A stretch of 64,000 nucleotides of DNA from Acidobacteriota bacterium (GCA_965222655.1 CBDCUP010000003.1:103932-167931); one strand, 5' to 3'; shown: positions 12 to 52,136, counted from the stretch's first letter. A program made the numbers and translations. Notes: generated by a model not told the origin, from the letters alone.

Positions 12-1286
12 CTATCTGGCCTTTGCTTCGAGGTGGTCACTCCCATTGGTCAACCACTCAAGATTGAATCGAGCCAGGTCAATTCGCGTATCCGTCCCCC
101 AGTCTACCTCCGCCTTGCCGAACCTTCGTGGTGGGACGTTATAGGACAGAAGAACGGTCATGTCGGGTGCCACCGCAAGATCCGAGTAGCCCCCCGGTCC
201 AGCGGTGACTACTCTCGACACCGGCCAGGTGCGGCACTCGTCGTAGCTGACCCTCACGGTCATGTGGGACCTGGCATCTGTCTTGGAAGGATGGGCCAAC
301 AACACACGATTCTTTCGGAAGCTCTCTTGATCTGTGAAGCGCACCAGGCTGCCCTGACAGGACGGTTCCGGGAGAGTGGCGTCGTTCCGAACCTCGGACC
401 AGGTTTGCCCCCCATCAGGGCTCCGGGCATAGGCACGGCGGAACGTCCTCTGACGGCTGCGCATGTTCATGTAAAGAGACCCATCCATGGTCTCGACCAC
501 TTCACACTCATCGGAGGCATTTTCCGTGAGCGGCTCTCCTCGTTTCCAGGTGGCGCCGTGGTCATCGCTGAAGGTAACGTAAGACAGCTGCACGCTCTGG
601 CCCCGCCAATGCGAACTCCAGATGAGGGGCAGTGAGATGTGGAAGATCAGGTCCAGGAGCTTCTCGGACTCGGGTCCAATCTGACCAGCCCAGGGGATTA
701 GCGCAGGGGTGATGTCCGCCCAACTTGGGATCAGCAATCGGCCACTCTTCAGCTGAATCCCGTGCCCCGGACCCGTGCCGACATAGCCCCAGGCCGGGTC
801 TCTTGCAGAACCGGTAATGTCTACGGGTTCGGACCAGGTTGCACCTTCGTCGGTGCTCTTCATGACAAAGACGCTACGGTTGTTCTTGCAGAAGGGCAAC
901 CAGATCGTCCCGGTCTCTCTATCCACCACCGGGCACGTGTTCCCCATGGTATGAGGACCCTCGTCGACAATCACCTGCACGTCGGTCCAGGTCTTGCCGT
1001 AGTCAAAGCTCCGGCGCAGAACGACATCGATGTCATCCCAATCCCGGCAACTGCGCTTCCTGGCTTCAGCCAGGACAAGAACGGTACCCTTCGGCGAGAC
1101 GATCAGCGAACTGTTTCGATAGCAGACATAGCCGTTTTCTCCGGCTCGAAACAGGGTCAACGTTTCAAACAGGCTTTCCTGACTCTGGCCTCTCGCTTCA
1201 AGCGTGAGAATCCCCAGGTCGGCGCCTGCCACAAAGAAAACAGAGACGCAGCACAGTAACAGCCATCCTAGGCGGGAACGAACCAT
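12..1286 (-). CDS. Exo-alpha-sialidase (GH33, BNR/Asp-box repeats), secreted
   Basis: There are four Asp-box motifs (SFDYGKTW, STDEGATWS, SDDHGATWK, SPDGGQTWS). The protein is strongly paralogous to the ORFs at 40783..42072 and 50979..52136. The start at 1286 gives MVRSRLGWLLLCC, a signal peptide, and is preceded by AAGGAG with a 6-nt spacer. The track's extension to 1328 is rejected. Confidence 0.85.
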   Translation of the reverse strand: MVRSRLGWLLLCCVSVFFVAGADLGILTLEARGQSQESLFETLTLFRAGENGYVCYRNSSLIVSPKGTVLVLAEARKRSCRDWDDIDVVLRRSFDYGKTWTDVQVIVDEGPHTMGNTCPVVDRETGTIWLPFCKNNRSVFVMKSTDEGATWSEPVDITGSARDPAWGYVGTGPGHGIQLKSGRLLIPSWADITPALIPWAGQIGPESEKLLDLIFHISLPLIWSSHWRGQSVQLSYVTFSDDHGATWKRGEPLTENASDECEVVETMDGSLYMNMRSRQRTFRRAYARSPDGGQTWSEVRNDATLPEPSCQGSLVRFTDQESFRKNRVLLAHPSKTDARSHMTVRVSYDECRTWPVSRVVTAGPGGYSDLAVAPDMTVLLSYNVPPRRFGKAEVDWGTDTRIDLARFNLEWLTNGSDHLEAKAR

Positions 1287-1500
1287 AATGATCTCCTTGT
1301 CACTCATGGGAGCCAACTTGCTTGTCATTGTCGACCATCGAAGAGAGCCAAATCAAGGACAGCCGAGATTTTACTTCGCAGCTCATTTTCGGATTGTGTT
1401 TCCTCGCGGGCGCCCTATAGTCTTACTCGAAAGAGAATCGGGGCCTTCGGTTACCCTGAGTCGAGGTAATAGCTTCCGAGAGCACAAGGGAGATATCTAG

Positions 1501-4386
1501 ATGAGACAGCTTTACTTCCTCATGTGTGCGCTTGCAGCAACGCTGACATGCGCCTTTGGGGAGGGGCTGGTGAGCTCAACGAGACAGCGCCTCAATCTCG
1601 ATGGAGTCTGGCAATTTCAGCTGGATCCCGAAGATCAAGGCGAGAAACTGGGGTGGGGTTCTGACCCCAGGGCTCTCTCAAACACAATTCGTGTACCCGG
1701 TATTTGGCAAACACAAGGTTTCGGCGAACCCCGCGGCCAGCTCCGCCATGATTACCAGGGCGCGGTCTGGTACAAGCGCACCTTCACGATTCCGGCCGAG
1801 TGGAAGGGGCGCGAGATTTGGCTGCACGTCGGGGGCATCCTTCGTCGCGCCCAGATCTATCTCAATGGGAAGACGGTGGGCAGCTATGACGGAATGATGA
1901 CGGCCTTCAGGGTCGACCTGAGGGATGCTCTTCTTCCGGGCCAGTCCAACTCGTTGGTGATCCGGGTGGATAACCGGATGCGATCCGGAAAGTATACTCC
2001 GGTTCCCCAGGGTGCCACTCCTTCACGAAAGTGGGACTTCTCCTCTCCCCTGGGAGCCTTCAACTTCGTCGGAAACTGGGGAGGCATCTATCGCAGTGTC
2101 TTCCTAGAAAGCACAGAAAGAATCTGGGTCGATCAGCAGTCGGTGCAGACGGATATCGATCAGCAAAAAGTGACGGTTTCCGTCCTGATTGGGAATCGTT
2201 CTGTCCAGGCCAATCAGAAGGTGGAGGTCAGCGTCACTCTCACGGGACCCCGGGGCCAGGTGGTGGCCGAGGAGAGCCGCCATTGTATCCTCCGGGGAGG
2301 CGAATTGGAGCCGGTGTCACTGGGAATAAGGGTACCGGCAATGCATCTCTGGTCGCCGGAAGACCCGGCCCTGTATACCGTACGCACTCGCGTACAGCTC
2401 GGCCGGCAGACGCTTGATGAGGTCCACGGCAGGTTCGGTATCAGGAAACTGTCCAAGCGCGATAACATTCTCCTTCTGAACAACCGGCCTTACTATTTGA
2501 GAGGCTATTCAGTGGGGCGGGGTGATCCGTTGGAGGGGATGATCCCTGTCAGCAAGGAATACTATCTGAAGCAATTTCGACTGGCTAAAGATTATGGATT
2601 CAACCATGTTCGCTACCACTCGATGACTCCACCCCCGGAAGCCTTCGAGGCCGCAGACGAAGTTGGAATCCTCCTCCATGTCGAACTGCCGGTGATGTTC
2701 ACCGGCTGGCTCATGCCAAGCGCAGATCTGTTGCGGCGGGAGATGGAAAGAATCCTGCTGGCTCATCGCAATCATCCTTCGCTTTTTGCCGTGGCTCTCG
2801 GCAATGAGTTCAATCTCCACCGCGACTTTGACACTGAAATGGAGAAGTCGGCTTTCCTCACCACGGTTGAGGACCTGCACCGGCTGGGCAGGCGCCTGGC
2901 CCCTCACATCTTCATCATGTCCAATGCCGGATATCCTCTTTTCCCCAGCGACCTGATAGCCAGCTATAAAGGCACCATCGCGGGTGTCCCTACGCTCAAA
3001 CACGAGTCCGGTGGCTATCACGACTCCTTGCCGGACATCGACCTGGCAGAGAGATTCACGGGGGTACTCAAATCAGACCAGCTGGCCGAGCGCGGCCGTT
3101 GGGTGGAGGAGAACGGCCTGAAAGCAATCTATCCGACACTGCGAAAACACTCGGAACGACTCCAGCAGATGGTGCGAAAATGGCATTTTGAGAGGGTGCG
3201 GAGCATACCGGAATTCTCCGGTTACCAATTCTGGCTGCTCATCGATTCTCCCGCCGACCACTACCAGGACTCCTGGGAAGACGGGCTTCTGAACTACTTT
3301 GGCGAGCCCAAGGCAATCACCAGACAGGAAATGCAGCAGATCAATGCACCGACTGTGGTTCTTATCGGCAGCGGAGTAGAGGATCGCGCCTTCTGGGCCG
3401 ACCGGGGAAAAACGGTTGACCTGTCCATATCCCACTACTCTTCCAAAGATCTTCAGAAGGCCAGGCTCGATTGGAAGCTCAAGCTGGAAGGGAAGACACT
3501 TCACCAGGGAACCGCCGAAAACATTCGGATCCGTACAGGGCAAGTGAAATACGTCACCACCGCTTCCATCCCCCCTCTTGCTCTTGAGCGCGCCACGCGG
3601 TTGGAGTTGTGGGTGGAATTGAAAGAAGACGATTTTCGACAAACCAATCATTGGAGCTTTTGGGCCTTTCCCAACACCGTCCTGGAGCGGGCCCAGGGAC
3701 TGATCAGCCTGAAGGGGGTGCGATCGGATTATCTGAAGCAGCGCTACCCATTCCTGACCGAATCTTCCAGGATTTCGCCTGAGGCCATGTTGGTGATCGC
3801 ATCACGATTGGACTGGAGCGTTTTCGACTACCTCCGCCGAGGGGGACGGGTGTTCTTGATGGTCGAACCCAATCAGTTTGACGAGCAAGTGGCGACGGAC
3901 TATTTTCCATTCATGGGCAAGTCGATTGGCACCTATGTCGACCCCAAACATCCTGCACTCGTAAACTACCCGCACCAGGGCTATTGCGATCTTCAATTCT
4001 TTGATCTCCTGGAAGGCGGCACCGCTCTCCGAATACCGGAATCTGCTGAGCTTTGGATGACCAGTGTGGGAGGTGACTTGGGACAGGGGAGACGCGACAG
4101 GCGAGTTGCCGAGCGAATTACGCCGATCGTCTGGGGACTGCAAAACAGAGGGGGAAGCTCGGGCGGCGGTTACCGCCGACTGGCCTGGCTGTCGGAGACC
4201 GGAGTGGGGGAGGGAAAGCTCCTCATCTGCACCCTACGACTGCGCGAGAATCTGGACGACGCTCGACCGGCAACCGTCTATCTATTCGACACCTTACTCC
4301 GATACGCGTTGTCTCCCGATTTCGCACCTGCCGGGTCCATTTCTGAAGAGGAGCTATCCGGCTTGTTGACACCCTACCTTCATTAA
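1501..4386 (+). CDS. Glycoside hydrolase family 2-like (beta-galactosidase/beta-glucuronidase type), secreted
   Basis: 961 aa with an N-terminal signal peptide. The GH2 sugar-binding-domain motif (WQTQGFGEPRG...YQGAVWYKRTF...LHVGGI....IYLNG) is followed by a TIM-barrel region. AAGGGAG lies upstream. Confidence 0.7.
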   Translation: MRQLYFLMCALAATLTCAFGEGLVSSTRQRLNLDGVWQFQLDPEDQGEKLGWGSDPRALSNTIRVPGIWQTQGFGEPRGQLRHDYQGAVWYKRTFTIPAEWKGREIWLHVGGILRRAQIYLNGKTVGSYDGMMTAFRVDLRDALLPGQSNSLVIRVDNRMRSGKYTPVPQGATPSRKWDFSSPLGAFNFVGNWGGIYRSVFLESTERIWVDQQSVQTDIDQQKVTVSVLIGNRSVQANQKVEVSVTLTGPRGQVVAEESRHCILRGGELEPVSLGIRVPAMHLWSPEDPALYTVRTRVQLGRQTLDEVHGRFGIRKLSKRDNILLLNNRPYYLRGYSVGRGDPLEGMIPVSKEYYLKQFRLAKDYGFNHVRYHSMTPPPEAFEAADEVGILLHVELPVMFTGWLMPSADLLRREMERILLAHRNHPSLFAVALGNEFNLHRDFDTEMEKSAFLTTVEDLHRLGRRLAPHIFIMSNAGYPLFPSDLIASYKGTIAGVPTLKHESGGYHDSLPDIDLAERFTGVLKSDQLAERGRWVEENGLKAIYPTLRKHSERLQQMVRKWHFERVRSIPEFSGYQFWLLIDSPADHYQDSWEDGLLNYFGEPKAITRQEMQQINAPTVVLIGSGVEDRAFWADRGKTVDLSISHYSSKDLQKARLDWKLKLEGKTLHQGTAENIRIRTGQVKYVTTASIPPLALERATRLELWVELKEDDFRQTNHWSFWAFPNTVLERAQGLISLKGVRSDYLKQRYPFLTESSRISPEAMLVIASRLDWSVFDYLRRGGRVFLMVEPNQFDEQVATDYFPFMGKSIGTYVDPKHPALVNYPHQGYCDLQFFDLLEGGTALRIPESAELWMTSVGGDLGQGRRDRRVAERITPIVWGLQNRGGSSGGGYRRLAWLSETGVGEGKLLICTLRLRENLDDARPATVYLFDTLLRYALSPDFAPAGSISEEELSGLLTPYLH

Positions 4387-4410: not shown

Positions 4411-5424
4411 ATGGTTGTGGATAAAGAATCCGTTGAGTTGGGCTTGATTGGCTGCGGGGGATTCGGCAGTCACCTTGCCACCGAGATTTTTCAGGATGTT
4501 GAAGGGCTGAGACTGGGGGCGGTCTATGACGTTGACCGTCCTGCGGCCCAGCGTCTGGGAGAGCAGCTGGCCGTCCCGGTGGTCAGTTGTGTCGAGGAAA
4601 TGTTCGGTATCCCTTCAGCGGATGCGGTTTTAATTGCCACACCGCACGATACCCACGAACGGCTGACTGTGATGGCGGCCGAAGCCGGCAAGCACATCTT
4701 CTGTGAGAAGGCGATGGCACGCACTGTGGACGAATGTCGTGTCATGATCGAGGCGGCCGAGATCCATGGAGTCAAGCTCATGGTGGGCCATAAGCGGCGC
4801 CTACGACCCGAGTACGCGCGACTGGCGGAAATCGTGCACAGCGGACGATTGGGAAAACCGGTTGCGGCAACCGTAACCGGCTTTCACTATTCGGACTACT
4901 ATCGGGGATGGTGGTCGGAGAAGAGGCGCTCGGGGGGAGAATTGCACTGTGCCGGTGCACACGATCTCGACTTCCTGCGGTTCCTCATGGGGGATGTGCA
5001 AACCGTCTTCGCGGTTGAGGGGCCGCGAATCAGCAGCGAGCATGATTGGCCAGATAGTATCCTGGTGACGCTGCAGTTTCGCAGCGGTGCGGTCGGCAGT
5101 CTTCAGATCGCGTTCAACTATCCGATGCTTTCCTTCCAGAACTCCTTTGCTACGCGAATAGCATGCGAGAGGGGGGCTGTCTGGTACGATCCTGAGCAGA
5201 TTACTGTGGCCTGGCAGGAAATCGGAGAAGAAGAACAAGAGGTGAAATTTTCGGATCACGGCTACAATGAAGCCTACCGTTTGGAACTGAAGAACTTTGT
5301 CGAATGGATCCAGCAAGATGCGGAGCCAGTCCTGACCGCAGAGAACGGACTTCGGTGTGTAGAACTGATGCAAGCCGCCTATCAGTCTGCTGCGGATGGA
5401 AAACCCATCCATTTGCCGCTCTAG
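4411..5424 (+). CDS. Gfo/Idh/MocA family NAD(P)-dependent oxidoreductase (sugar dehydrogenase-like)
   Basis: GLIGCGGFG Rossmann motif at the N-terminus, plus the EKAMA..........GHKRR pattern typical of the family. Confidence 0.8.
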   Translation: MVVDKESVELGLIGCGGFGSHLATEIFQDVEGLRLGAVYDVDRPAAQRLGEQLAVPVVSCVEEMFGIPSADAVLIATPHDTHERLTVMAAEAGKHIFCEKAMARTVDECRVMIEAAEIHGVKLMVGHKRRLRPEYARLAEIVHSGRLGKPVAATVTGFHYSDYYRGWWSEKRRSGGELHCAGAHDLDFLRFLMGDVQTVFAVEGPRISSEHDWPDSILVTLQFRSGAVGSLQIAFNYPMLSFQNSFATRIACERGAVWYDPEQITVAWQEIGEEEQEVKFSDHGYNEAYRLELKNFVEWIQQDAEPVLTAENGLRCVELMQAAYQSAADGKPIHLPL

Positions 5425-5481
5425 AGGCCGATTCAGCGGGCTTTCACGGCCTGGAAGCAGCCTCTTAGAAAGGGGAAAGAG

Positions 5482-6327
5482 ATGATTATTGATGTCCATT
5501 GCCACCTGGGAAAGTCGGAGTATCTAAAGCCGGATATCAAGGAAGAGGAGAAGAGGATCTCGGGAGGAAAGGAGCCACACTACGCCAGTGATGAGGAGGT
5601 GGCTGAAACGATCCGAGCACAGGTAGATCGGGCCATCCTCCTTCCCTTCCATTGGAGCCAACTAGGCGTCCATGTGAGCAACGAACGCGCCGCCGAATTC
5701 GTCGAAAAATACTCGGATACGTTTATCGGCTTCCTCTCGGTGGATCCACACTTGCCCGAAGCCTACGAGGATCTCAAGAAAGGGTTTTTCGAACTGGGAC
5801 TCAAGGGGGTGAAGATGAGCGCCATCTATCAGAACTTTGATCCCCTGGACGATAGGATGAAGCCCATTTACGCGTTCGCGGAGAAGCACGGTCTGCCAAT
5901 GATGCTGCATCAGGCGACGGTTCCGTTCCGTCGCTCTCTTTTGAAGTACGCGAGTCCCGCGTTGTTCGACGAGGTGGCGCTGGAATTTCCCAACCTGAAG
6001 ATGATCATGGCTCATATGGGACACCCCTGGGTCGAGGACTGCATCGTCATGGTTCGAAAGCATCCTCACGTCTACGCCGACGTCTCGGGGGTCTTACTGC
6101 GGCCCTGGATGGCCTATAACTTCCTCCGCTTGGCCACTGAGTGGGGGATATTGGACAAACTCCTTTTCGGGTCCGATTACCCCTTCGTGATGACCCCTCA
6201 AGAGACCATCGACCGCCTTCGCGGCATCAACGACATCTTGGAGGGCACCAAACTGCCACGGGTGCCGGAAGATGCGATCGAGAAGATCATCCACAGGGAT
6301 TCCTTGGCGATGCTCGGGTTAGAGTAG
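5482..6327 (+). CDS. Amidohydrolase_2 family metal-dependent hydrolase (candidate sugar lactonase)
   Basis: The N-terminus MIIDVHCHLG is the hallmark of amidohydrolase 2 TIM-barrel enzymes, a family that includes L-fucono- and L-rhamnono-lactonases. A GGGAAAGAG ribosome-binding site lies upstream. Confidence 0.7.
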   Translation: MIIDVHCHLGKSEYLKPDIKEEEKRISGGKEPHYASDEEVAETIRAQVDRAILLPFHWSQLGVHVSNERAAEFVEKYSDTFIGFLSVDPHLPEAYEDLKKGFFELGLKGVKMSAIYQNFDPLDDRMKPIYAFAEKHGLPMMLHQATVPFRRSLLKYASPALFDEVALEFPNLKMIMAHMGHPWVEDCIVMVRKHPHVYADVSGVLLRPWMAYNFLRLATEWGILDKLLFGSDYPFVMTPQETIDRLRGINDILEGTKLPRVPEDAIEKIIHRDSLAMLGLE

Positions 6328-6392
6328 CAGGACAACCGGTCCAAACGGGGACCCATTGCACCAAATGTTCTGTGATAGACGATCGAACAGAA

Positions 6393-7625
6393 ATGGCTAC
6401 TGATAGCTCTGAAGTAAACAAGGTTACAGTCCTGACCGTCAGTATTGGACTGGCCTTCTTGAGTGGCGCCACCATCAACTGGCTACCCGTCACTTACGCC
6501 CACTTTGAGAGAGAATTCGCTGCAGGGCTCCAGGCACAGGGCAGCACTTGGGGTCTTTTCTTCGTGGGTGGGATCGTCATTGCTGCGCTCGGCGGATGGC
6601 TCACCAAAAGCTTGGGCCTGAAACGAGCGGCGTCTGGCACCCTCTTGGTGCTCGGCCTCGGCATGTCGATCGTCGGGGGAGCACCACTCTTTGGGGTGTT
6701 GTTGATAGGGTGCTTTCTATTCGGCATGGGCATGAACTGGATGACGATCGTCTACAGCACCCTCATCTCCTCTCATTTCCAAGAGCGCCGCCAGTCGCTC
6801 TTCCTCTGGGCCAACGCCGCCCTGTCCGGAGGGTCTTTCCTGACTCTGCCTCTGCTCGGAATCTGGTTCGAGCACACGGAATACACGGGCGGATGGCGCT
6901 CCGCTTATTTGGGTCTGGGTGCGGGCGCGATCCTTGGAGGTGGATTGTTGTTTTGGTTGTGTAGCAGTCTGGAACCGGTCGCGACGGCCGAAGAGGAAAC
7001 GGGCACTAAAGAGTCCAGCGGTCTCAAATCCCTGCTGGGTCAGGGTGGGTTCTGGTTGATTGGGCTGTGCTTTTTTCTCTACGCCATGGCCCAGCTGGCA
7101 ATCTGTTCCTGGGTAGGACAGCTCTACCGCTACCGACTTTCAATCGACGATGCCCAGGCGGGTTCCCTGCTCGGGTTCAATTCACTCGGATACTTGATCG
7201 GACTGCTGATTCTCTCCTGGCTCTCCAGCAGGCGCAACTACAATGACCGTCTCCTGCTGGCGGTCTGCTGCGGAAGCGCCACCGTCGTTCTGATCGCCGT
7301 CATACTGAGTCAGGAATATACACTCGGTTTGGTTCTCATGACGCTGGAAGGAGCCACCATTGCCGGAAGTGGTCCCGCCATTTTCTCGTTTGTGGGCGCT
7401 CGTTTCCAGAAAGAAGGAGCCCTCGCTTTCGCCCTGTTGGTTGGTTTCTCCCAAGTGGGTGCTTCGGCCGGACCCTATTCGGTGGGATTCCTGGGAGAGA
7501 GACTCGGAGGGCTGGAGACCGCGATTTGGATCGTGCCCTTTCTAAGTGCGGTGGTAGCGCTGTTGAGCCTGACTTGGGAGTTCGGGGACAGGAAGCGACG
7601 AGGCAAGGCTCAAGGGGCGGCTTGA
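6393..7625 (+). CDS. MFS transporter
   Basis: About 410 aa with 12 predicted hydrophobic segments. The start is re-assigned to the ATG at 6393 (MATDSSEV); the track ORF runs from 6141 through the 3' end of the upstream gene. Confidence 0.75.
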   Translation: MATDSSEVNKVTVLTVSIGLAFLSGATINWLPVTYAHFEREFAAGLQAQGSTWGLFFVGGIVIAALGGWLTKSLGLKRAASGTLLVLGLGMSIVGGAPLFGVLLIGCFLFGMGMNWMTIVYSTLISSHFQERRQSLFLWANAALSGGSFLTLPLLGIWFEHTEYTGGWRSAYLGLGAGAILGGGLLFWLCSSLEPVATAEEETGTKESSGLKSLLGQGGFWLIGLCFFLYAMAQLAICSWVGQLYRYRLSIDDAQAGSLLGFNSLGYLIGLLILSWLSSRRNYNDRLLLAVCCGSATVVLIAVILSQEYTLGLVLMTLEGATIAGSGPAIFSFVGARFQKEGALAFALLVGFSQVGASAGPYSVGFLGERLGGLETAIWIVPFLSAVVALLSLTWEFGDRKRRGKAQGAA

Positions 7626-7640
7626 AGGTGGAGGAAGAAG

Positions 7641-8827
7641 ATGGAACGGATGCGTATCACGGGACTGCAGACCTTTCTGGTGAACGCGCATTGGCGCAAC
7701 TGGACGATCGTGCGGCTGGATACCGACAGCGGTCTGTCCGGCTACGGGGAAGGGACACTCGAGGGCCGTGAACAGACTGTCGAGACTGCCATCCGCGAGC
7801 TGGAGCGCTACCTGGTGGGCAAGGATCCCTTTCAGATCGAGCGCCACTTCCAGGAAATGTACCGACGAGCCTTCTGGACCGGGGGGGCCGTGCTCAACAG
7901 CGCCATCAGCGCAGTGGACATGGCACTTTGGGACATCAAGGGCAAGGCCCTGGGTGTTCCGGTCTACGAGCTCCTGGGTGGCCGGGTGCGTGACCGGATC
8001 AAGCTTTATGCCAACGCCTGGTACAAAGGTGGGGCTTCACCGGAAGAGATGGCGGATCAGGCCAAAGAGACAATAGCCCGGGATTCAAGGGACTCAAGTT
8101 CAACCCTTTTATACGCCGTGAGGGCTACGACTTCTACCGCCTGGACAACGACATCCTCTGGACCGGTGTCGACTGCGTTGCAGCCGTGAGAGAGGCGATA
8201 GGTCCCAGCATCGATCTCTACATCGACTGCAACGGTGTCTTCAACACGGTCGGGAACGCGGTCCGGGTAGCAAAGCTACTGGAGCCGTATAACATCGGCT
8301 TTATAGAGGAGCCGATCCCGCACGAGAACCTCTCGGAGATGGCTTACTTCCGCCGCAAGGTCAATATCCCTGTGGCAACCGGGGAACGTCTCTTCACGAC
8401 ATTTACGTTCCAGCAGCTCCTGGAGATTGAAGGTGCGGATATAGTTCAGCCTGATCTCTGCCATTGCGGCGGAATCTGGGAAGCTCGCAAGATTGCCGCC
8501 ATCGCCGACACTCACTATGTGGCCATGGCGCCCCACAACCCCAACGGCGCCGTCGGCCATAGCGCCACCGTCCAACTTGCCGCCTCTGTTCCGAACTTTC
8601 TGGTACTGGAATACTTCCCTCCCGAGAGCTGGCGCGAAAGTGTCGTTTCCGATTCTTTTGCAATTGAGGATGGCTGGCTGGAGATTGCCGACCGGCCTGG
8701 CCTCGGAATCGAATTCAATGAAGAGGAAGCAGCCAAGCGTCCCTACCAGCCTGTCGATCTATACGATCTGCACCGCAAGGAGTTCGAGCTGCACGTCCCC
8801 GGATTCGAGGAAGGGCCGGAGGAATGA
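7641..8827 (+). pseudogene. Enolase-superfamily sugar-acid dehydratase (D-galactonate/D-mannonate dehydratase-like), interrupted by a -1 frameshift near 8079-8083
   Basis: N-terminal part 7641..8189 ends in nonsense (TIARDSRDSSS...). The C-terminal part continues in the frame of ORF 8186..8827, with homologous sequence (GFKGLKFNPFIRREGYDFYRLDNDILWTGVDCVAAVREAIGPS) already readable upstream of 8186. The shift falls in the homopolymer run gcccggg at about 8076-8083. Confidence 0.75.
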
Positions 8828-10747: not shown

Positions 10748-12046
10748 ATGAAGTCTTCAAGACGCGTCTTCGTTAAGTCCGGCCTAACCCTTGCGGCTGG
10801 AACCAGCCTGATCGGGAAATCCGCAGAGTCAGAGGCCACCCCTGGCGGTGAGAAGGGCGTCCTCTACGAAGGATATGCAATCAAACCCAGACCGAGCGTT
10901 CAGGAAGCAACTCTTGCGAAGTTGAAGGATGGGCGCTACTGGCTCCTTTTTGGTGAGGGTTCCAAGGGTGAGGCCTCTCACTACAAAGATCCGGGTTTTA
11001 TGAAGGGAAGGTTCTCCAACGATGGGGGGCGTTCCTGGCAGGAGACGATGCAGCTGCAGACCAAGGATGGATCGCCGATCGCGACGGCGCGGGTCACCCC
11101 CCACCACAGCCTGTTCAGGCTTCCTTCGGGCGCCCTGGGTTTGATCCATGGAGGACCCTATGCCCGATCGGGGCGGGACGGGACGGTCTTGTTCCGCAAA
11201 TCTACAGACGAAGGTCAGAGCTGGTCGGCTCCGGTGACCGTGGATCCCTACTTCTCCCTCAGCCGGACCGGCAGCGTTCGAGTCCTCAGCAACGGGCGCA
11301 TTTTGACGCCGGTCGTGTCCTGGATCAGCCCGGACGCGGGACCGACGTCGGAAAGCGTGGAACGTACCCTTTTCTTCACCTTGGTTTTCTACTCCGACAA
11401 TGAGGGAGAGTCATGGAATCGTGCCCTGAGCGAGTTGTTCATTCCCTGGGACAAAATGAACCTGGGTGCACAGAGCTTCGATGAGCCGGTCGTGGAAGAG
11501 CTGAAAGATGGCCGGGTCCTGATGTATGCACGAACCCAGATGGGGAATCTCTACCAGAGCGTTTCCGAAGACAGAGGGATTACATGGTCGGTTCCCTCCC
11601 CCTTGCCCCATGCCACATCTGATGCGCCCTGCACCCTCATTCGGATCCCGGCGACCTCCGATCTGCTGCTGGTCTGGAATCAGGTCTCCGAAGAGGAAAC
11701 CAAGGCCGGCCTGAATCGACACCGACTGTCTTGCGCGGTCTCGCAGGATGAGGGCAAGATCTGGAAACATCACAGAAACCTGGAATCGCTGGATGACACC
11801 ACCCATGTGCCACCTCCAGAGGGTCCCCTTCGCGTAATCAAATCAGGAAGTTACACTCAGCCGACCGATCGCAAGCGCTATCATCGAGCCCCGGGACCGC
11901 TTCGGGTGAGCTATTGCACCGTTGCCTTTACCGGAGATGAAGTGACTTTCGCCTACGACTACGGATACGGCGTCGGTGAGTTGTTAGATGCCCAGGCAAC
12001 CAAGATCAAGATCGTTTCTCTGGATTGGCTTTACGGTCGGGTTTGA
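10748..12046 (+). CDS. BNR/Asp-box repeat protein of the sialidase superfamily, secreted
   Basis: Asp-boxes are SNDGGRSWQ, STDEGQSWS, SDNEGESWN, SEDRGITWS and SQDEGKIWK. The signal is MKSSRRVFVKSGLTLAAG. It lacks the obvious RIP motif of the three GH33 paralogs, so its activity is uncertain. Confidence 0.65.
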   Translation: MKSSRRVFVKSGLTLAAGTSLIGKSAESEATPGGEKGVLYEGYAIKPRPSVQEATLAKLKDGRYWLLFGEGSKGEASHYKDPGFMKGRFSNDGGRSWQETMQLQTKDGSPIATARVTPHHSLFRLPSGALGLIHGGPYARSGRDGTVLFRKSTDEGQSWSAPVTVDPYFSLSRTGSVRVLSNGRILTPVVSWISPDAGPTSESVERTLFFTLVFYSDNEGESWNRALSELFIPWDKMNLGAQSFDEPVVEELKDGRVLMYARTQMGNLYQSVSEDRGITWSVPSPLPHATSDAPCTLIRIPATSDLLLVWNQVSEEETKAGLNRHRLSCAVSQDEGKIWKHHRNLESLDDTTHVPPPEGPLRVIKSGSYTQPTDRKRYHRAPGPLRVSYCTVAFTGDEVTFAYDYGYGVGELLDAQATKIKIVSLDWLYGRV

Positions 12047-12118: not shown

Positions 12119-12222
12119 CGAGATTGTGCTGTTGTCCGCTCTCTCCTGCCTGCGTCGTCCTCGACGGCCGGAACTTGGCCCCATATTGCAGACGATTCAA
12201 GCCGTGCGCGGCTCTGTTGGAT
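12119..12222 (-). repeat. Intergenic repeat family copy A (ATTGTGCTGTTG...GCGGCTCTGTTGG core), carrying a 30-nt insertion
   Basis: Alignable by eye to copies at 16575-16665, 32786-32865 and 59746-59822. The shared blocks are attgtgctgttg, ggaacttg, atattgcagacga, tcaag and gcggctctgttgg. Confidence 0.6.
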
Positions 12223-19036: not shown

Positions 19037-19064
19037 CGCCGCGCCAACTGATCTAAAGCCGCGG

Positions 19065-19097: not shown

Positions 19098-19141
19098 TCG
19101 TGAAACAGAATTGGGAAGTTCGCCTCTTGGATCGTCCTCAG

Positions 19142-39254: not shown

Positions 39255-39256
39255 CT

Positions 39257-40693
39257 ATGGAATTCGACGAGCTCAGACGGATCCTAACCCGCCGAGACTT
39301 CTTGGGAAGTTGCGCCGCCGGCATCGAAACGATTGCGCTGGCCCAACTGTTGGCCACCGAAGGACGGGCGGAGGGGAACGAACCACCGATCGATAATCCC
39401 TTGGCTCCCAGACCCCCTCATTTCGAACCGACCGCAAAGAACCTGATCGTCCTGTTCATGGCGGGAGCCCCGAGTCAGATTGATTTGTTCGATCCCAAAC
39501 CCGAACTTCAGAAATGGCATGGCCAGTCGCTGCCCCCGTCGATGACCGAGGGGATGAAGCTGGCCTTCATTGAGCCCAGCGCCAAGGTCTTTGCCAGTTC
39601 TCGAACCTTCAAACCCTACGGGGAAAGCGGCATAGAGTTTTCCGATTACCTGCCCCACCTGGCAACCTGTGCCGACGATATCTGCCTGATTCGGTCGATG
39701 TACACCGAAGCCTTCAACCACCATCCAGGCCAACTGTTGCTGATGACGGGCAGCATGCAGTTTGGCCGCCCCACCCTGGGGTCCTGGGTGTCCTATGGTC
39801 TGGGCAGTGAGAGCCAGGACCTTCCCGGGTTCGTGGTTCTGAGCTCGGGAAAGGGAACCAGTGGTGGAACGACCAACTGGTCCTCCGGGTTTCTGCCGTC
39901 GGTGTACCAGGGGGTGCCATTCCGGGATCAGGGAGACCCGATTCTCTATCTGTCCAACCCTGGGGGGATGAGCCAGGAAATGCAGCGGGAGCGGCTGGAC
40001 GCCCTGCGGGACTTGAACCAACAGCATTATCTGAGAACCCGCGATCGTGAAATCGCCTCGCGCATTGCTTCCTACGAGCTGGCCTTTCGAATGCAGGCGG
40101 CTGCCCCACAGTTGATCGATTTCTCGGATGAGCCCAAACACGTCCTCGACAGCTACGGTGTCAACGATGAAACAACCCGGCCTTTCGCTGTCAATTGTCT
40201 GTTGGCCCGCAGAATGGTCGAGCAGGGGGTCCGGTGCATCCTGCTGGCACACTCCAGCTGGGACGACCACGAGCAGATCGACAAGAGGTTGAAAAAGAAC
40301 TGCGCCATTACGGATCAGCCCGCAGCAGCTCTGTTGAAGGACTTAAAGGAGCGAGGCCTGTTGGACAGCACGCTCGTCGTGTGGGGAGGTGAGTTCGGCC
40401 GCACTCCCCTGGCTCAGATCATCCGGGAAAATGAGGGTGCGGGGCGGGATCACCACCCCGACTGCTTTACCATGTGGATGGCAGGAGGCGGGGTCCGCGG
40501 CGGTCAGGTCATCGGGAAAACCGATGAGTTCGGTTTGAGGATCGTCCAGGACAAGGTACACGTCCATGATCTGCAAGCCACGATTCTGCACCTTCTAGGC
40601 CTGGACCATACCCGTTTAACATACCGCCACATGGGCCGCGATTTCCGCCTGACCGATGTGGCTGGCGAGGTGGTGAAAAAAGTTCTCGCTTGA
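39257..40693 (+). CDS. DUF1501 domain protein (sulfatase/alkaline-phosphatase-superfamily-like), Tat-secreted
   Basis: Tat motif LTRRDFLGSCAAG. The DUF1501 blocks are FMAGAPSQ.DLFDPKPEL, HHPGQ, VVWGGEFGRTP and GRDHHP.CF. It starts 2 nt after the DUF1553 stop, so translation is coupled. It is paralogous to 58219..59655. Confidence 0.85.
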   Translation: MEFDELRRILTRRDFLGSCAAGIETIALAQLLATEGRAEGNEPPIDNPLAPRPPHFEPTAKNLIVLFMAGAPSQIDLFDPKPELQKWHGQSLPPSMTEGMKLAFIEPSAKVFASSRTFKPYGESGIEFSDYLPHLATCADDICLIRSMYTEAFNHHPGQLLLMTGSMQFGRPTLGSWVSYGLGSESQDLPGFVVLSSGKGTSGGTTNWSSGFLPSVYQGVPFRDQGDPILYLSNPGGMSQEMQRERLDALRDLNQQHYLRTRDREIASRIASYELAFRMQAAAPQLIDFSDEPKHVLDSYGVNDETTRPFAVNCLLARRMVEQGVRCILLAHSSWDDHEQIDKRLKKNCAITDQPAAALLKDLKERGLLDSTLVVWGGEFGRTPLAQIIRENEGAGRDHHPDCFTMWMAGGGVRGGQVIGKTDEFGLRIVQDKVHVHDLQATILHLLGLDHTRLTYRHMGRDFRLTDVAGEVVKKVLA

Positions 40694-40775: not shown

Positions 40776-40782
40776 ACCCCGT

Positions 40783-42072
40783 TCAGGGGGCCTTTTTCTG
40801 CAAGCTATCAGCCCCGTCAGTCAACCATTCCAGGTCGAAGCGAGCGACTGAAACCTTGGCGTCCGGTCCGGGGTAGCCAGCACCCGAAGTCCAGACCAGG
40901 TCCTTGGTGTAAATGCAGAGAATGCTCATGTCAGGCGCAACCGCAAGGTTCGAGTAGCCGGCCGATCCCGGGTAGAGGACCTTCGATACCGGCCAGGTTT
41001 TGCCCTCGTCGTAGCTGAGCCTGATCGTCATCTGGGATCTCTCAGTCGTGCTGGCCGGGTTGGACACTAGGATACGATTCTTGTTGAAACTCTCCTGATC
41101 GGTGAAGCGCACCACGCTGCCCTGACAGGAAGGCTCGGGGAGCGTCTCGTCGTATTTCACCTCCGACCAGGTTTCCCCACCGTCCTTGCTCCAGGCATAG
41201 CCGCGGCGATGGCTCTGATCAATAACTCGAGATGATGGCCACCTTTGCTTAGCAGTACGGCTCCTCAGAGTCATGTACAAGGTACCGTCAACGGTTTCTA
41301 CGGCCTCACACTCATCGGATTTGTCCTTGGTCAGAATTTCGCCTCGCTTCCAGGTTTCTCCGTGATCGTCGCTGAAGAAGGCATAGGACCACTGGACATT
41401 CTGGGGGCGCCACTGCCTCCAGATCACGGGTCGCATAAGGGAGTAGACCATCTCGATCACGTCCTTTAGTTGGCCCTCGGCGCCCTCTGCTAATTCGACG
41501 GGTCCCGGAGTTTCATCTCCCCAGGCCGGTATCAGAAGCCGTCCACTCTTCAGCTGGATGCCGTGCCCCGGACCTGACCCAAGGAAACTCCAGACGGGAT
41601 CCTTGACGTCGTCGGTGATTTCGACCGGCTCCGACCAGGTCTCACCATCGTCTGTGCTTTTCTTCACGAAGACCTGGCGGTTGTTCTTGCAGTAGAGGAG
41701 CACAATGGTTCCGGTCTGGTGATCCACCACCGGACATTCATTGCCAATCGTGTGTTTCCCGTCATCGGCCACGACCTGCATCTCCTCCCAGGTCTGGCCG
41801 CTATCGAAACTGCGTCTGAGCACAATGTCGGTATCGTCCCAATCATGGCCGTCGTTCTTCCTGGCTTCGGCAAAGGCGAGGATCGTCCCCTTGGTCGAAA
41901 CCGCTAGCGCAGGAATCCGGTAGAGAAAGTACCCTCCCTCTCCAACTTTAAACAAAGCCGTTTCAACCGGCGACCCCGCGCTTTCCTGGCTTTCTGGATC
42001 CGACATTGGCGGTTCCGAAGCCGTGCAGCCTAAAAGGAAGGCAGTAAGAAGTATCGGGATGATGTGTCTCAT
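40783..42072 (-). CDS. Exo-alpha-sialidase (GH33), lipoprotein
   Basis: Lipobox MRHIIPILLTAFLLGC. YRIP motif (YFLYRIPALAVS). Asp-boxes are SFDSGQTW, STDDGETWS, SDDHGETWK and SKDGGETWS. It is about 55-60% identical by eye to 12..1286. Confidence 0.85.
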   Translation of the reverse strand: MRHIIPILLTAFLLGCTASEPPMSDPESQESAGSPVETALFKVGEGGYFLYRIPALAVSTKGTILAFAEARKNDGHDWDDTDIVLRRSFDSGQTWEEMQVVADDGKHTIGNECPVVDHQTGTIVLLYCKNNRQVFVKKSTDDGETWSEPVEITDDVKDPVWSFLGSGPGHGIQLKSGRLLIPAWGDETPGPVELAEGAEGQLKDVIEMVYSLMRPVIWRQWRPQNVQWSYAFFSDDHGETWKRGEILTKDKSDECEAVETVDGTLYMTLRSRTAKQRWPSSRVIDQSHRRGYAWSKDGGETWSEVKYDETLPEPSCQGSVVRFTDQESFNKNRILVSNPASTTERSQMTIRLSYDEGKTWPVSKVLYPGSAGYSNLAVAPDMSILCIYTKDLVWTSGAGYPGPDAKVSVARFDLEWLTDGADSLQKKAP

Positions 42073-42331: not shown

Positions 42332-44089
42332 ATGTCTTCCAACCGAAGGAATTTCTTGAAGACCGTGGCTGCGGCAGGCGGAACCGCTGCTGCTGCTGGC
42401 ACACTTTCCGCATCCACAGGCCCAGGGGCTGTCTCCAGCGCCGAGTCTCACGGCAGTAAAGAAAAACCCCCGTTTCGTTTGATCTGGGAGGGGGAGTGGA
42501 ACGATGTGCCCTGCTCCGACTATCCACTGACCCCGGAAAGATGGGCCAAAGAAGCCCTGGCGCCCCTGGCCAACACCCACGTGGACGCTTTGGCCTACAA
42601 CGTCTGCAGCAGCGACGGCTATGTCGCCCAGCTGGAGCACGGGGAATTGCTGCTCGACAACGTCGAGCAGTTCGAAGATGCCTGGTATTGGAGATACCGG
42701 GAAAACACCAAGGGGCTGATCAAGGCAGGCGCCAACCCTCCCGACATGGCCGTCAAGTATGGACAGAAATACGGGATGAAGATCTTCGCGGTCATCCGGA
42801 TGAACGATCCCCACGACCAGGTCTACGCCTTCAGGCACGAGGTAAGTAATTTCAAGCTAAACCACCCTGAGTATTTGCTGGGAAACCCGCACTGGGAAGT
42901 AGGTGACAAGGCTCAAAAGGAATACGCGCCGGATACCATGGAATCCTTCACCTGGGGCCTGTTTGACTACTCTCACAAGGCGGTGCGGGATCACAAGCTG
43001 GCCATCATCAATGAGTTCGCCACTCGCTGGGATAACGATGGAGTCATGCTGGATTTCGAGCGGGATCCCATGTACTTCTGGCCTCCCCAGGGAGGTGGGG
43101 CTAAGCCCGAGAACCAGGAGAAGATGACCGATCTGATCCGATCAATCAGAGCGACGCTGGACAAAGTTCAGGCTCAACGCGGGAAAAAGCAGTTACTGAT
43201 GGTGCGGGGAGTTGCCAACATCCAGTTGTGTCAGGAGCGTGGATTGGATATCCCCACCTGGGTCAAGGAAGGCCTGGTGCAAGTAATCATTCCAGGAGCG
43301 GGCTACGCACCCTTCACGTTGAACCTGAAGCCCTGGCTGGAGCTGGTGGAAGGTAAGGAGTGTTGGATCTATCCTTCGAACAACCATTGGAAACATACCG
43401 AGGTCACCAGGGCCTGGGCGCTCCAGATGCTCGACGAAGGAGCCCATGGGCTCTACCTCTTCAACTGGGGCCATCTGATATTCGGTTACAGGGCGGCCGA
43501 GTCCCCCTTGGTTCCCGTCGGTTCCAACTGGCGCGGGAGCGCCTATTCGGTCTGGTACGATGAGGCCCCTCCCGACTTCTACACCACTCTGCACGAGATC
43601 GGAGATATTCGAGCCGTGCAGTTCAAGAACAAGCGGTACGTCCTGGATTCGATCCCGCATGAGGTGATGAAGGATCGGCTGCGGGGCGGCAAGATAGGTA
43701 GCCGGCTGTATCGAGGAATCGACGATGTCGTGCTACCCGTGGAGCTCTCAGTCGGCCGGCATGAGGTCCCATTCCGGATCTCTGACGCTCTGCAATCGGC
43801 TCACGAGTACGGATTCGATCCCAAGGCCACACTCACGATGATGATCGTGAATCACACTCATCCTGATCGCTTCACGGTAACCTTGAACGATACGCTTCTG
43901 AACGATGACACCCGCTCGAGCCGGGATGTCTACATCATGAACAACTTCTCCAGGGTGCAGTATCCGATTCCGTTAGAGGCGCTGAATCATGGACAGAACA
44001 CGCTGAAGCTCCACATGACCAAGACCAATCCGCAGATGAGGCCCAACCCGGTGCTGCAGAACGTGGATATCTCGATCGAGTACGTCTGA
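42332..44089 (+). CDS. Tat-secreted TIM-barrel-like protein of an uncharacterised glycoside-hydrolase-like family (paralog)
   Basis: Tat motif MSSNRRNFLKTVAAAGG. Start at ATG 42332, preceded by AAGGAGGG. It is about 70% identical to 59929..61677 (PPFRLIWEGEWNDVPCSDYPLTPE.WA, IRMND.HDQ, AIINEFATRWDNDGVMLDF.RDPM.FWPPQGG, LYLFNWGHL). Confidence 0.6.
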   Translation: MSSNRRNFLKTVAAAGGTAAAAGTLSASTGPGAVSSAESHGSKEKPPFRLIWEGEWNDVPCSDYPLTPERWAKEALAPLANTHVDALAYNVCSSDGYVAQLEHGELLLDNVEQFEDAWYWRYRENTKGLIKAGANPPDMAVKYGQKYGMKIFAVIRMNDPHDQVYAFRHEVSNFKLNHPEYLLGNPHWEVGDKAQKEYAPDTMESFTWGLFDYSHKAVRDHKLAIINEFATRWDNDGVMLDFERDPMYFWPPQGGGAKPENQEKMTDLIRSIRATLDKVQAQRGKKQLLMVRGVANIQLCQERGLDIPTWVKEGLVQVIIPGAGYAPFTLNLKPWLELVEGKECWIYPSNNHWKHTEVTRAWALQMLDEGAHGLYLFNWGHLIFGYRAAESPLVPVGSNWRGSAYSVWYDEAPPDFYTTLHEIGDIRAVQFKNKRYVLDSIPHEVMKDRLRGGKIGSRLYRGIDDVVLPVELSVGRHEVPFRISDALQSAHEYGFDPKATLTMMIVNHTHPDRFTVTLNDTLLNDDTRSSRDVYIMNNFSRVQYPIPLEALNHGQNTLKLHMTKTNPQMRPNPVLQNVDISIEYV

Positions 44090-49550: not shown

Positions 49551-49557
49551 GGCGAAA

Positions 49558-50955: not shown

Positions 50956-50978
50956 GCAGAAGGGAGATGGAGGGAACA

Positions 50979-52136
50979 ATGAACTTGAGATCGTGGCTGT
51001 TGTTGTCTGTCTGTGTCAGTGTGCTAACGTCGTGCGGCTCGCCCCAGCCGGAACAATTGACCGAAGAGCCAAAGGGGACGAATCCGCTCTTCGAAGAAAC
51101 CAGCCTGTTCGAAAAGGGAGAGAAGGACTATTTCTGCTTCCGGATCCCCGCCCTGGTGACTTCAACCAAGGGCACCCTCCTAGCCTTCGCCGAGGCCAGA
51201 AACACCATCTGCCGGGACGATGCTGACATCGAGCTGGTTCTGAAACGAAGTCTGGATAATGGAAAAACCTGGAGCGACCTCCAGATAGTCGTCGACGACG
51301 GGATCCATACCGCCGGCAATCCCTGCCCCGTGGTGGACCAGACGACTGGGACCATTTGGCTGCCCTATACCAAGAACAACCAACGGGTTCTCGTTACCAA
51401 GAGCACCGACGACGGAGTGAGCTGGTCGGAGCCGGTCGAGATCACCGAGTCGGTCAAGGACCCCACCTGGAAATACCTGGGAACCGGACCGGGACACGGA
51501 ATCCAGTTGGCGAGCGGCAGGCTGCTGATTCCCAGTTGGGGAGACACCAGCCCCGGTCCGGCGACCTGGAAGCCCGATAAGCCCAACTGGGGTAAGGTCC
51601 AGTTCTCCTATACCTTCTTCAGTGATGACCACGGAGCCACCTGGCAGAGAGGAGAAACCCTGACCAACGATATGTCGGATGAGTGCGAAGCCGTGGAGAC
51701 CGTGGATGGTTCCATTTACATGAACATGCGCAGCCGCCAGAAAAAGCATCGTCGAGCCTATTCGAGGAGTCAGGATGGCGGAAACACCTGGTCGGACGTG
51801 GAATTTGACGAAACGCTCCCGGAGCCGTCCTGTCAAGCCGGCCTGGTGCGTTTCACCCATCAGGACCAATTCCAGAAGAATCGAGTCCTGCTTACCCATC
51901 CTTCCAACACCGAAGAGAGATCGCACATGACGGCGAGAGTCAGCTATGATGAAGGGAAGACCTGGCCGGTTTCGAAATTGGTCTATGAAGGTTGGGCGGC
52001 CTACTCTGACCTTGCGATAGCCCCTGATATGACGATCGCGTGTCTATACGAGGTAGACAGATACGCCAAGATTATCCTGGCCCGCTTCAATATCGAGTGG
52101 CTGACGGAGGGAAGTGATTCTCTCCAAGCGAGGTAG
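50979..52136 (+). CDS. Exo-alpha-sialidase (GH33), lipoprotein
   Basis: Start at ATG 50979, preceded by GGAGGG. Lipobox MNLRSWLLLSVCVSVLTSC. FRIP motif (YFCFRIPALVTS). Asp-boxes are SLDNGKTWS, STDDGVSWS, SDDHGATWQ and SQDGGNTWS. The track's 5' extension from 50790 overlaps the TPR gene and is rejected. Confidence 0.85.
   Translation: MNLRSWLLLSVCVSVLTSCGSPQPEQLTEEPKGTNPLFEETSLFEKGEKDYFCFRIPALVTSTKGTLLAFAEARNTICRDDADIELVLKRSLDNGKTWSDLQIVVDDGIHTAGNPCPVVDQTTGTIWLPYTKNNQRVLVTKSTDDGVSWSEPVEITESVKDPTWKYLGTGPGHGIQLASGRLLIPSWGDTSPGPATWKPDKPNWGKVQFSYTFFSDDHGATWQRGETLTNDMSDECEAVETVDGSIYMNMRSRQKKHRRAYSRSQDGGNTWSDVEFDETLPEPSCQAGLVRFTHQDQFQKNRVLLTHPSNTEERSHMTARVSYDEGKTWPVSKLVYEGWAAYSDLAIAPDMTIACLYEVDRYAKIILARFNIEWLTEGSDSLQAR

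Follow-up and report, generated by a model that had tools for sequence, protein, structure and literature searches.

Why does an acidobacterial genome carry three paralogous sialidase-type genes within a short stretch of DNA, and what would their products act on? We followed this question in 64,000 nucleotides from an Acidobacteriota bacterium (GCA_965222655.1, CBDCUP010000003.1:103932-167931), the whole of which is called the window below. An initial annotation had proposed one locus dedicated to sialoglycans or other nonulosonic sugars, with three exo-sialidases of glycoside hydrolase family 33 (GH33), here sialA, sialB and sialC, among its genes. The GH33 trio consists of ordinary members of a well-known, very abundant clade and is nothing new in kind. 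The value added over it lies in a second trio of genes, absent from those flagged by the initial annotation and identified in the present analysis, whose predicted products have the fold and most of the active-site residues of the GH156 inverting exo-sialidase, and in the partners that recur in operons with such genes elsewhere; this is a modest but testable lead. On balance we favor the explanation that this soil acidobacterium encodes dispersed, exported enzymes which strip terminal sialic-acid-type (nonulosonic) sugars from environmental glycans.

The GH33 paralogues and BNR-D

The GH33-type genes are listed with their Pfam BNR_2 scores (cut-off 31.4 bits) and, for the trio, the positions assigned to catalysis.

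12..1286, minus strand: sialA, 424 aa, secreted, type-I-like signal; BNR_2 111.6 bits; R57, D82, E260, R276, R339, Y367
40783..42072, minus strand: sialB, 429 aa, lipoprotein signal LLGC; BNR_2 122 bits; R52, D77, E254, R270, R345, Y373
50979..52136, plus strand: sialC, 385 aa, lipoprotein signal LTSC; BNR_2 131 bits; R55, D80, E235, R251, R314, Y342
10748..12046, plus strand: BNR-D, divergent GH33-like beta-propeller with a twin-arginine translocation (TAT)-type signal; BNR_2 89 bits

Protein lengths of the trio were counted from the start codons given in the initial annotation, and the export signals of the trio, BNR-D and the GH156-like proteins were read directly from the sequence. The three are single-domain proteins with 54 to 57% pairwise identity (55 to 57% for sialA against sialB and sialC; BLASTP E ~1e-162 to 1e-164), and with BNR_2 scores of 111-131 bits the claim of three paralogous exo-sialidases was borne out. 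At E<=1e-3, 82 solved GH33 chains match sialC, and the top matches are Bacteroides thetaiotaomicron BTSA (4bbw, 2.4e-43) and the Micromonospora viridifaciens sialidase (MvNA; 1eur, 3.6e-41). Residues were mapped by counting positions in the printed 1eur alignment, in which an offset of 42 reproduces R68 and D92. MvNA residues 68, 92, 260, 276, 342 and 370 are what we take to be the catalytic set. R55, E235, R251, R314 and Y342 of sialC are aligned to the identical MvNA residues R68, E260, R276, R342 and Y370; MvNA Asp92 falls opposite Arg79 of sialC, and the acid/base was assigned to D80 from the 4bbw alignment and family invariance. The six positions are common to sialA, sialB and sialC and invariant across an alignment of 42 diverse homologues, which argues for selection on catalysis. 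The active-site check proposed in the initial annotation thus found, in each of the three proteins, an Arg triad, an acid/base Asp and a Glu/Tyr pair, and the prediction that they are catalytically complete GH33-type exo-sialidases is supported.

The finer motifs agree in part with the initial annotation, which had given YRIP-type motifs and four Asp-boxes to each protein. The N-terminal motif is YRIP in sialB and FRIP in sialC, and the claim fails for sialA, which reads YRNS. Among 120 homologues, I-P stands beside the first Arg in 109 and N-S, the variant of sialA, in one. Four boxes each is an approximate figure: strict S-x-D-x-G-x-x-W counts are four in sialA (plus SYDECRTW), five in sialB and five in sialC, with four in BNR-D. 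sialA and sialB have a hydrophobic insert of 22-23 residues between GHGIQ and the third Asp-box that is found in five of ~101 homologues (sialB has a further 12-aa insert). This rare insert identifies sialA and sialB as the outcome of one duplication, sialC being the typical clade form; a rough neighbor-joining tree (no bootstrap) groups sialA with sialB and places sialC beside them. By our own mapping, in which the loop alignment is uncertain, the window GH33 enzymes have Leu or Phe opposite MvNA Leu170. Arg171 of the fungal (Aspergillus fumigatus) KDNase presumably sits at this position, in which case Leu or Phe there would count weakly against a non-sialic substrate.

Like the GH33 exo-alpha-sialidases NedA (1eur) and BTSA (4bbw), the trio is predicted to combine a six-bladed BNR propeller with the catalytic set, four to five Asp-boxes and secretion, and like the 41-kDa M. 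viridifaciens form the proteins consist of a single catalytic domain. They differ from NedA and BTSA in overall sequence (E 1e-41 to 1e-43), in having no carbohydrate-binding module or BNR_assoc_N domain, in a shorter loop after blade 1, in the 22-aa insert of sialA and sialB and in the YRNS of sialA.

BNR-D, described by the initial annotation as a more distant BNR protein, was confirmed as such. It aligns to the GH33 clade with a probability of 98.8 (hhalign), and the 350 matches of its family are mostly named "hypothetical" or "sialidase family protein". E246, R262, R324 and Y389 are invariant in this family; the first Arg is found in most members but not in all, and conservation does not extend to the acid/base Asp. 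Catalysis by BNR-D is plausible from these residues. The initial annotation had itself considered that the BNR proteins might be non-catalytic lectins, and structural beta-propellers are a related possibility. The YRNS motif of sialA and the incomplete set of BNR-D, which has no conserved acid/base Asp and no strict conservation of the first Arg, would fit this explanation, but the presence and clade-wide invariance of the six positions in the trio and the invariant Glu, two Arg and Tyr of the BNR-D family make it very improbable. For sialA, sialB and sialC, the reading as non-enzymatic BNR lectins was rejected on the six positions.

The window has a G+C content of 57-58%. The sialB protein is encoded exactly, with the same neighbor genes, on a 781-kb ENA contig of a long-read soil metagenome-assembled genome (MAG), and identical copies of sialA, sialB and sialC each occur in protein clusters from multi-megabase contigs. 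The closest species-representative match of sialC is a Terriglobia MAG (64% identity). The Acidobacteria-like origin guessed in the initial annotation is therefore right, and an assignment of the window to an uncultured soil Acidobacteriota with a Terriglobia-type genome is supported by these matches.

The initial annotation had also called the GH33 genes an expansion that is unusual for a soil-type lineage, a view which does not hold. In a word-indexed search that was saturated, at least 6510 of 8000 scored candidates match the sialidase query at E<=1e-20, and clade members are named exo-alpha-sialidase or sialidase-1 in the sources. Species-representative genomes with relatives belong to Terriglobia, Bryobacterales, many Planctomycetota, Verrucomicrobiota, Armatimonadota, Bacteroidota, Calditrichota and Latescibacterota. 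A GH33 expansion in a soil Acidobacteria genus has already been published (bioRxiv 10.1101/2021.04.09.439258), and Isosphaeraceae genomes carry one to eight GH33 genes each (PMC5352709). Orthologues of each paralogue are found at 64-98% identity in several other genomes, so that the expansion is an old one.

The GH156-like trio and its partners in other genomes

Three further genes encode proteins related to EnvSia156 (6rzd), the inverting exo-sialidase on which family GH156 was founded.

59929..61677, plus strand: GH156-like-1 (unk582), 582 aa, TAT signal
42332..44089, plus strand: GH156-like-2, 585 aa from M33, TAT signal (NCBIfam), with a 585-aa gene call in locus L081
15037..16560, plus strand: GH156-like-3, the most divergent; Pfam GHL10 35.7 bits

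GH156-like-2 is 69% identical to GH156-like-1, and GH156-like-3 is 26% identical to both others. GH156-like-1 matches EnvSia156 at 6e-17 by phmmer and at 2.6e-25 with a 32-sequence family profile. Its AlphaFold (AF2) model (predicted local distance difference test, pLDDT, 85; predicted template modeling score, pTM, 0.87) retrieves 6s04, 6rzd and 6s00 as the top Foldseek matches over the full length (E ~1e-32; template modeling scores, TM, 0.69/0.80), and the next fold is Cwp19/GHL10 at 5e-13 and TM 0.38. In EnvSia156, the carboxylate triad is Arg129/Arg202/Asn346, the proposed acid is His134 and the general base is Asp14 (PMC6811678). We checked the numbering through the alignment of a bridging homologue, P0250, with 6rzd, over a mappable range from R129 to N346. 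The EnvSia156 segment SMRMNDVHY (R129, D132, H134) corresponds to AIRMNDAHD in GH156-like-1, and the equivalents of R202, R246 and N346 are conserved. The motifs are RMNDAHD, DFDR and LFNW in GH156-like-1, RMNDPHD, DFER and LFNW in GH156-like-2, and RINDIHD, DFLR, AVRV and LFNW in GH156-like-3, which aligns with unk582 and unk617. Equivalents of the carboxylate triad and the acid His are thus kept in all three paralogues. The resemblance to EnvSia156 (6rzd/6s00/6s04; PMC6254351, PMC6811678) extends to the (beta/alpha)8 barrel with a C-terminal beta-sandwich and the R-M-N-D-x-H motif; the TAT signal and a DUF386/YhcH operon partner set the clade apart from it. In the database this clade has 99 matches, none with a Pfam domain, and every named one is "hypothetical". 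GH156 proper is found mainly in Planctomycetes, and in gut genomes it is fused or adjacent to GH33 and to carbohydrate esterase family 4 (CE4), a co-location similar to that in the window (bioRxiv 10.1101/2022.06.28.497753).

Gene neighborhoods were surveyed in loci seeded on the GH156-like clade, onto which the window proteins were mapped, and separately in 80 GH33-seeded loci. Outside the window, compact operons join the GH156-like clade to genes for a TonB receptor, a YhcH-type protein, a class-IV aminotransferase, a BNR-D-like protein and a sialC-type GH33 enzyme. Four examples are given.

L082 (Bryobacteraceae): TonB receptor, GH156-like, DUF386, PhyH, GH33, GH156-like
L092: GH33 with BNR_assoc_N, TonB receptor, GH156-like, DUF386, BNR-D-like, sialC-like (62%)
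L093: TonB receptor, class-IV aminotransferase, BNR_2 protein, GH156-like, DUF386, sialC-like (60%), GH33
L088: GH156-like, DUF386, PhyH, sialC-like (64%), molybdopterin oxidoreductase, NHL protein, epimerase, aminotransferase, GH33

Of the 22 close GH156-like loci with a length of 6 kb or more, 8 have a BNR/GH33-type gene and 8 a class-IV aminotransferase. These counts include the near-duplicate contigs L088/L089 and L097-L099 (the latter three in the aminotransferase count), and the number of independent loci is therefore smaller. BNR-D homologues adjoin GH156-like genes in L091, L092, L095 and L105. In four independent loci a DUF386 gene comes directly after the GH156-like gene, and this gene was seen in none of the 80 GH33-seeded loci. 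DUF386/YhcH is a characterized anomerase of N-acetylneuraminic acid (Neu5Ac) (PMC8141875), a link between the GH156-like clade and a product that resembles sialic acid.

Genes for a DAO-family oxidase and a cytochrome P450 recur near GH156-like genes in L082 and L084, and an HpcH/HpaI aldolase gene is also present in L082. Together with the class-IV aminotransferase, the oxidase, P450 and aldolase hint at catabolism of an amino-sugar acid.

Gene layout and neighboring genes in the window

The glycan genes fall into three modules.

Left module, in order: sialA, GH2, dehydrogenase, lactonase-type, major facilitator superfamily (MFS) and MR_MLE genes; then BNR-D, a dihydrodipicolinate synthase (DHDPS)-type gene, CE4 and GH156-like-3; at its minus-strand end, class-IV aminotransferase, TAT protein and TonB receptor
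Middle module, in order: PSCyt/PSD, DUF1501, sialB, GH156-like-2
Right operon, first part: molybdopterin oxidoreductase, two tetratricopeptide repeat (TPR) genes, sialC, unk330, unk784; remainder: PSCyt/PSD, DUF1501, GH156-like-1, SGL, MR_MLE

Genes of the right operon are 4-70 bp apart, except for 273 bp ahead of GH156-like-1 and a 4-bp overlap after it, and the synteny of this operon is kept in the 90% relative L079. A SoxC/SorA-like molybdopterin oxidoreductase gene (46137-47441) heads the TPR-TPR-sialC part; in L088/L089, the gene that comes next after the sialC-like one encodes a 55% homologue (L088 5882-7060). The PSD-DUF1501-GH156-like unit is present twice in the window. The single dedicated locus of the initial annotation was not borne out: the genes span 64 kb, and between them lie transposase, pyrroloquinoline quinone (PQQ) dehydrogenase, thiamine pyrophosphate (TPP) enzyme, TPR, GWxTD and ASPIC genes (Pfam). 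The transposase gene is intact, belongs to the Mutator family (23170-24354; Transposase_mut, 370 bits) and has the TonB-receptor operon on one side and TPR/ASPIC genes on the other; it may be the trace of a rearrangement by which the modules became scattered. A pair of FG-GAP/ASPIC-UnbV paralogues is found at 26455-28176 and 44260-46116, with homologues near GH33 genes in L002, L023 and L079.

The remaining genes of these modules are as follows.

1501..4386, plus strand, divergent from sialA: GH2 glycosidase (Glyco_hydro_2_N, Glyco_hydro_2), beta-galactosidase-like
4411..8827, plus strand: sugar-oxidation block of GFO/IDH/MocA dehydrogenase, Amidohydro_2 (lactonase-type), MFS and MR_MLE (Pfam, NCBIfam)
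12197..13159, minus strand: DHDPS-family enzyme; nearest solved structure an L-2-keto-3-deoxyarabonate dehydratase
13326..15023, plus strand: CE4 (NodB) lipoprotein; Polysacc_deac_1 40.1 bits against a cut-off of 23.1, residues 121-249 of the long open reading frame (ORF)
16716..22471, minus strand: operon of TonB receptor, TAT protein and class-IV aminotransferase (Pfam, NCBIfam)
16716..17690, minus strand: class-IV aminotransferase
17918..19036, minus strand, between aminotransferase and receptor: 372-aa protein with a TAT signal and no family match
19142..22471, minus strand: CarboxypepD_reg TonB-dependent outer-membrane receptor
36966..40693, plus strand, convergent with sialB: PSCyt2/PSD1 and DUF1501, copy a (Pfam)
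52217..53134, plus strand, between sialC and unk784: unk330, ~305 aa, secreted, His-rich (HIHPHG)
53146..55500, plus strand: unk784, with a GH67N/GH20b-type N-domain, a TIM barrel and a helical C-domain
55569..59655, plus strand: PSCyt1/PSCyt2/PSD1 and DUF1501, copy b, synteny kept in L079 (Pfam)
61674..63795, plus strand, directly 3' of GH156-like-1: SGL/SMP-30 lactonase-type and MR_MLE (Pfam)

The GH2 gene of the initial annotation was found at its position by Pfam; its best NCBIfam model is exo-beta-1,4-galactosidase at 301 bits, under the cut-off. The DHDPS-family gene had been read as a NanA-like lyase. It matches L-2-keto-3-deoxyarabonate dehydratase (AraD; PDB 7c0c/3fkk) at 6e-30 and NanA at 4.5e-14, scores 64 and 57 bits with NanA NCBIfam models that have cut-offs of 281 and 382, and stays far under the cut-off of every NCBIfam model that it matches. 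The NanA identity was therefore rejected, which corrects a likely mis-annotation; the similarity to AraD is a moderate match near full length. In the sugar-oxidation block, the MR_MLE gene at 7641-8827 is split by a frameshift at ~8186, with N- and C-terminal ORFs in different frames that overlap at 8186-8189; it is either a pseudogene or the result of a long-read homopolymer error. The second MR_MLE gene (61674..63795) scores 287 bits against 311 for galactonate dehydratase (NCBIfam), and the SGL and MR_MLE pair recurs near a GH156-like gene in L085 (Phycisphaeraceae). Dehydrogenase, lactonase and dehydratase neighbors are typical of non-phosphorylative sugar oxidation. By family membership the dehydrogenase, Amidohydro_2, SGL, MR_MLE and L-2-keto-3-deoxyarabonate dehydratase-like genes would fit oxidation, by such a route, of the neutral sugars under the cap and not sialate catabolism.

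The CE4 gene corresponds to the NodB deacetylase fusion of the initial annotation. The deacetylase domain is present as proposed; the C-terminal part without a family match is ~410 aa and not 330. Its start at 13326 and its lipobox are likely from the sequence, and it ends 13 bp ahead of GH156-like-3. As a conserved partner the fusion gave no match in 165 related loci, and its link to the GH156-like gene is this 13-bp spacing. Members of the receptor and aminotransferase families of the minus-strand operon also occur next to GH33 and GH156-like genes in L082, L092 and L093.

Downstream of sialC, unk330 gave no match in Pfam, NCBIfam or the PDB, and only L079 has it conserved beside sialC. The AF2 model of unk784 (pLDDT 91.5) finds GH138, GH115, GH67 and GH20C by Foldseek at TM 0.45-0.5 and 10-13% identity, and 223 cluster representatives match the protein at E<=1e-30. 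Its N-domain resembles a DUF4838 protein near the GH156-like gene of L085, and unk784 may represent an unclassified GH family on the basis of this model. Alpha-uronidases make up several of the similar families, a hint that the substrates may be acidic heteropolysaccharides.

Each copy of the PSD/DUF1501 pair has one GH156-like and one GH33 gene as neighbors. Between copy a and the L079 orthologues of copy b the identity is 65-72%, indirect evidence that the two are probably paralogous. A PSD gene is present within 10 kb in 9 of the 80 GH33-seeded loci and DUF1501 in 7, mostly acidobacterial; in the Terriglobia and Bryobacterales loci L001, L002, L005, L021, L080 and L134, pairs of this kind are found at most 10 kb from a GH33 gene. 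We know of no assigned function for DUF1501, and a combined literature search for DUF1501/DUF1553 found nothing. DUF1501 genes are frequent in genomes of these phyla. The PSCyt/PSD genes, likewise frequent in some of these genomes, are functionally unknown and perhaps carbohydrate-related (PMC5615132). Their adjacency to sialidases could therefore be chance, and a role of PSD/DUF1501 as specific sialidase partners is unproven.

This chance adjacency is one argument for taking the window as an ordinary CAZyme-rich stretch, in which three independent scavenging sialidases happen to lie close together and their proximity has no function beyond general foraging. The enormous size and phylogenetic scatter of the GH33 family, the age of the three paralogues, each with its own orthologues, and the unrelated genes and Mutator transposase between them suit such an explanation, as does the near absence of any neighbor that recurs across the 80 GH33-seeded loci. 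Chance, however, would hardly place two gene trios, GH33 and GH156-like, within 64 kb. At least four independent metagenomic contigs carry the same combination of families, each in one operon, and the PSD-DUF1501-(GH33)-GH156-like module is duplicated in the window. We therefore hold the explanation by mere foraging to be unlikely.

Proposed stripping of nonulosonic-acid caps

Under the explanation we favor, dispersed exported enzymes that remove sialic-acid-type sugars, the retaining GH33 and the inverting GH156-like enzymes would work at the cell surface or in the periplasm and would attack nonulosonic-acid caps that differ in linkage or modification. Blocking acetyl groups might be removed by the CE4 deacetylase, whose gene is probably coupled in translation to GH156-like-3, and the TonB-dependent receptor would import oligosaccharides. 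GH2 (galactosidase-like) and the GH67/115/138-like unk784 could take off the sugars beneath the cap, and the dehydrogenase, the lactonase, the enolase-superfamily dehydratase and the DHDPS-type dehydratase would oxidize the released neutral sugars by the non-phosphorylative route. The fate of the released acid lies outside the canonical NanA/NanK/NanE pathway as far as the window is concerned. Genes for glycans that end in acidic sugars are enriched in the region. The sialic or nonulosonic theme of the initial annotation thus gains from the three GH156-like genes and the compact operons elsewhere, and it loses the NanA-like lyase and the single locus.

Several findings weigh against this explanation. 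Activity reports cover no enzyme of the window and no close homologue, and the nearest solved GH33 structure is distant (E ~1e-43). NanA, NanK, NanE and a sialate transporter were absent from the window ORFs of at least 150 aa (Pfam, NCBIfam), and DUF386/YhcH was not found in the window by tblastn. The glycan gene set is broken up by many unrelated genes and the transposase. GH156-like genes are present in only 2 of the 80 GH33-seeded loci, so that the GH33 clade is much broader than the proposed system. The sugar-acid genes would fit oxidation of galactose, arabinose or fucose at least as well. EnvSia156 is only 19% identical to GH156-like-1, and its Asp14 region (N-terminal strand) gave no HMMER alignment by fragment query, family profile or bridging homologue; conserved acidic candidates for the general base in GH156-like-1 are E54, D57 and D62, after strand beta1 (residues 49-54). 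The +1 aromatic platform is replaced in unk582 (W164->F, F203->D, F278/W279->G/S), and its aglycone preference should therefore differ from that of EnvSia156, and the substrate may differ as well. The platform residues Trp164/Phe203/Phe278/Trp279 are described as conserved among close EnvSia156 homologues and not as family-defining.

In a second alternative, the enzymes would act on non-sialic ulosonic acids and the name sialidase would be nominal. GH33 includes KDNases and Kdo (3-deoxy-D-manno-octulosonic acid) hydrolases. The candidates would be Kdo or Dha (3-deoxy-D-lyxo-heptulosaric acid) of plant rhamnogalacturonan-II (RG-II) or of bacterial lipopolysaccharide and capsule, or the strictly bacterial 5,7-diamino nonulosonic acids, pseudaminic (Pse) and legionaminic (Leg) acid. 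The initial annotation had likewise suggested that microbial nonulosonic acids or KDN could be the substrates in place of host Neu5Ac; the candidates overall are Neu5Ac, KDN, Pse, Leg and Kdo. A soil setting suits these substrates of the second alternative, and unk784 has an alpha-uronidase architecture that includes GH138, which targets RG-II. An aglycone site unlike that of EnvSia156 and a window without NanA would also agree with it, and an amino-sugar acid would be in keeping with the class-IV aminotransferase, DAO and P450 genes found repeatedly around the GH156-like clade. The DUF386/YhcH partner, on the other hand, has been characterized on Neu5Ac (PMC8141875), and EnvSia156 itself accepts Neu5Ac, N-glycolylneuraminic acid (Neu5Gc) and 2-keto-3-deoxynonulosonic acid (KDN) (PMC6811678). 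We regard a non-sialic substrate range as rather doubtful.

The proposed stripping of sialic-acid-type caps also has known counterparts. Bacteroidota (Tannerella/Bacteroides) nan clusters combine TonB-dependent NanOU, a NanH sialidase, a NanS esterase and NanA/NanE/NanT. Like them, the window encodes sialidases and a TonB receptor together with an enzyme for deacetylation and glycosidases that would act on the sugars beneath. It differs in that the receptor is of the CarboxypepD_reg/OMP_b-brl_4 type without a SusD partner, the deacetylase is CE4 and not of the SGNH type, NanA/NanE/NanK/NanT are absent from the window, the genes cover more than 60 kb, and the set also includes a class-IV aminotransferase and an inverting-type enzyme. 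A wider proposal is that Acidobacteriota and Planctomycetota share a hitherto undescribed mode of harvest for sialic or other nonulosonic acids, with retaining GH33 enzymes, TAT-exported GH156-like inverting enzymes, a CarboxypepD_reg TonB receptor, a YhcH-type anomerase and a catabolism that bypasses NanA, for example by CE4 de-N-acetylation followed by the class-IV aminotransferase (DAO in relatives), with microbial exopolymers and not animal glycans as the natural substrates. We put this forward tentatively, as the less probable extension of the locus-level explanation.

Sialidases have been studied mostly in pathogens and gut commensals, and the GH33 clade described here abounds in bacteria of soil and water. 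That the GH33 and GH156-like families are consistently paired is worth testing. GH156 has very few characterized members, and the GH156-like clade could widen its biochemical range. The GH156-like trio and its partners are candidates for the recycling, in soil, of fungal, protist or bacterial exopolysaccharides capped with nonulosonic acids.

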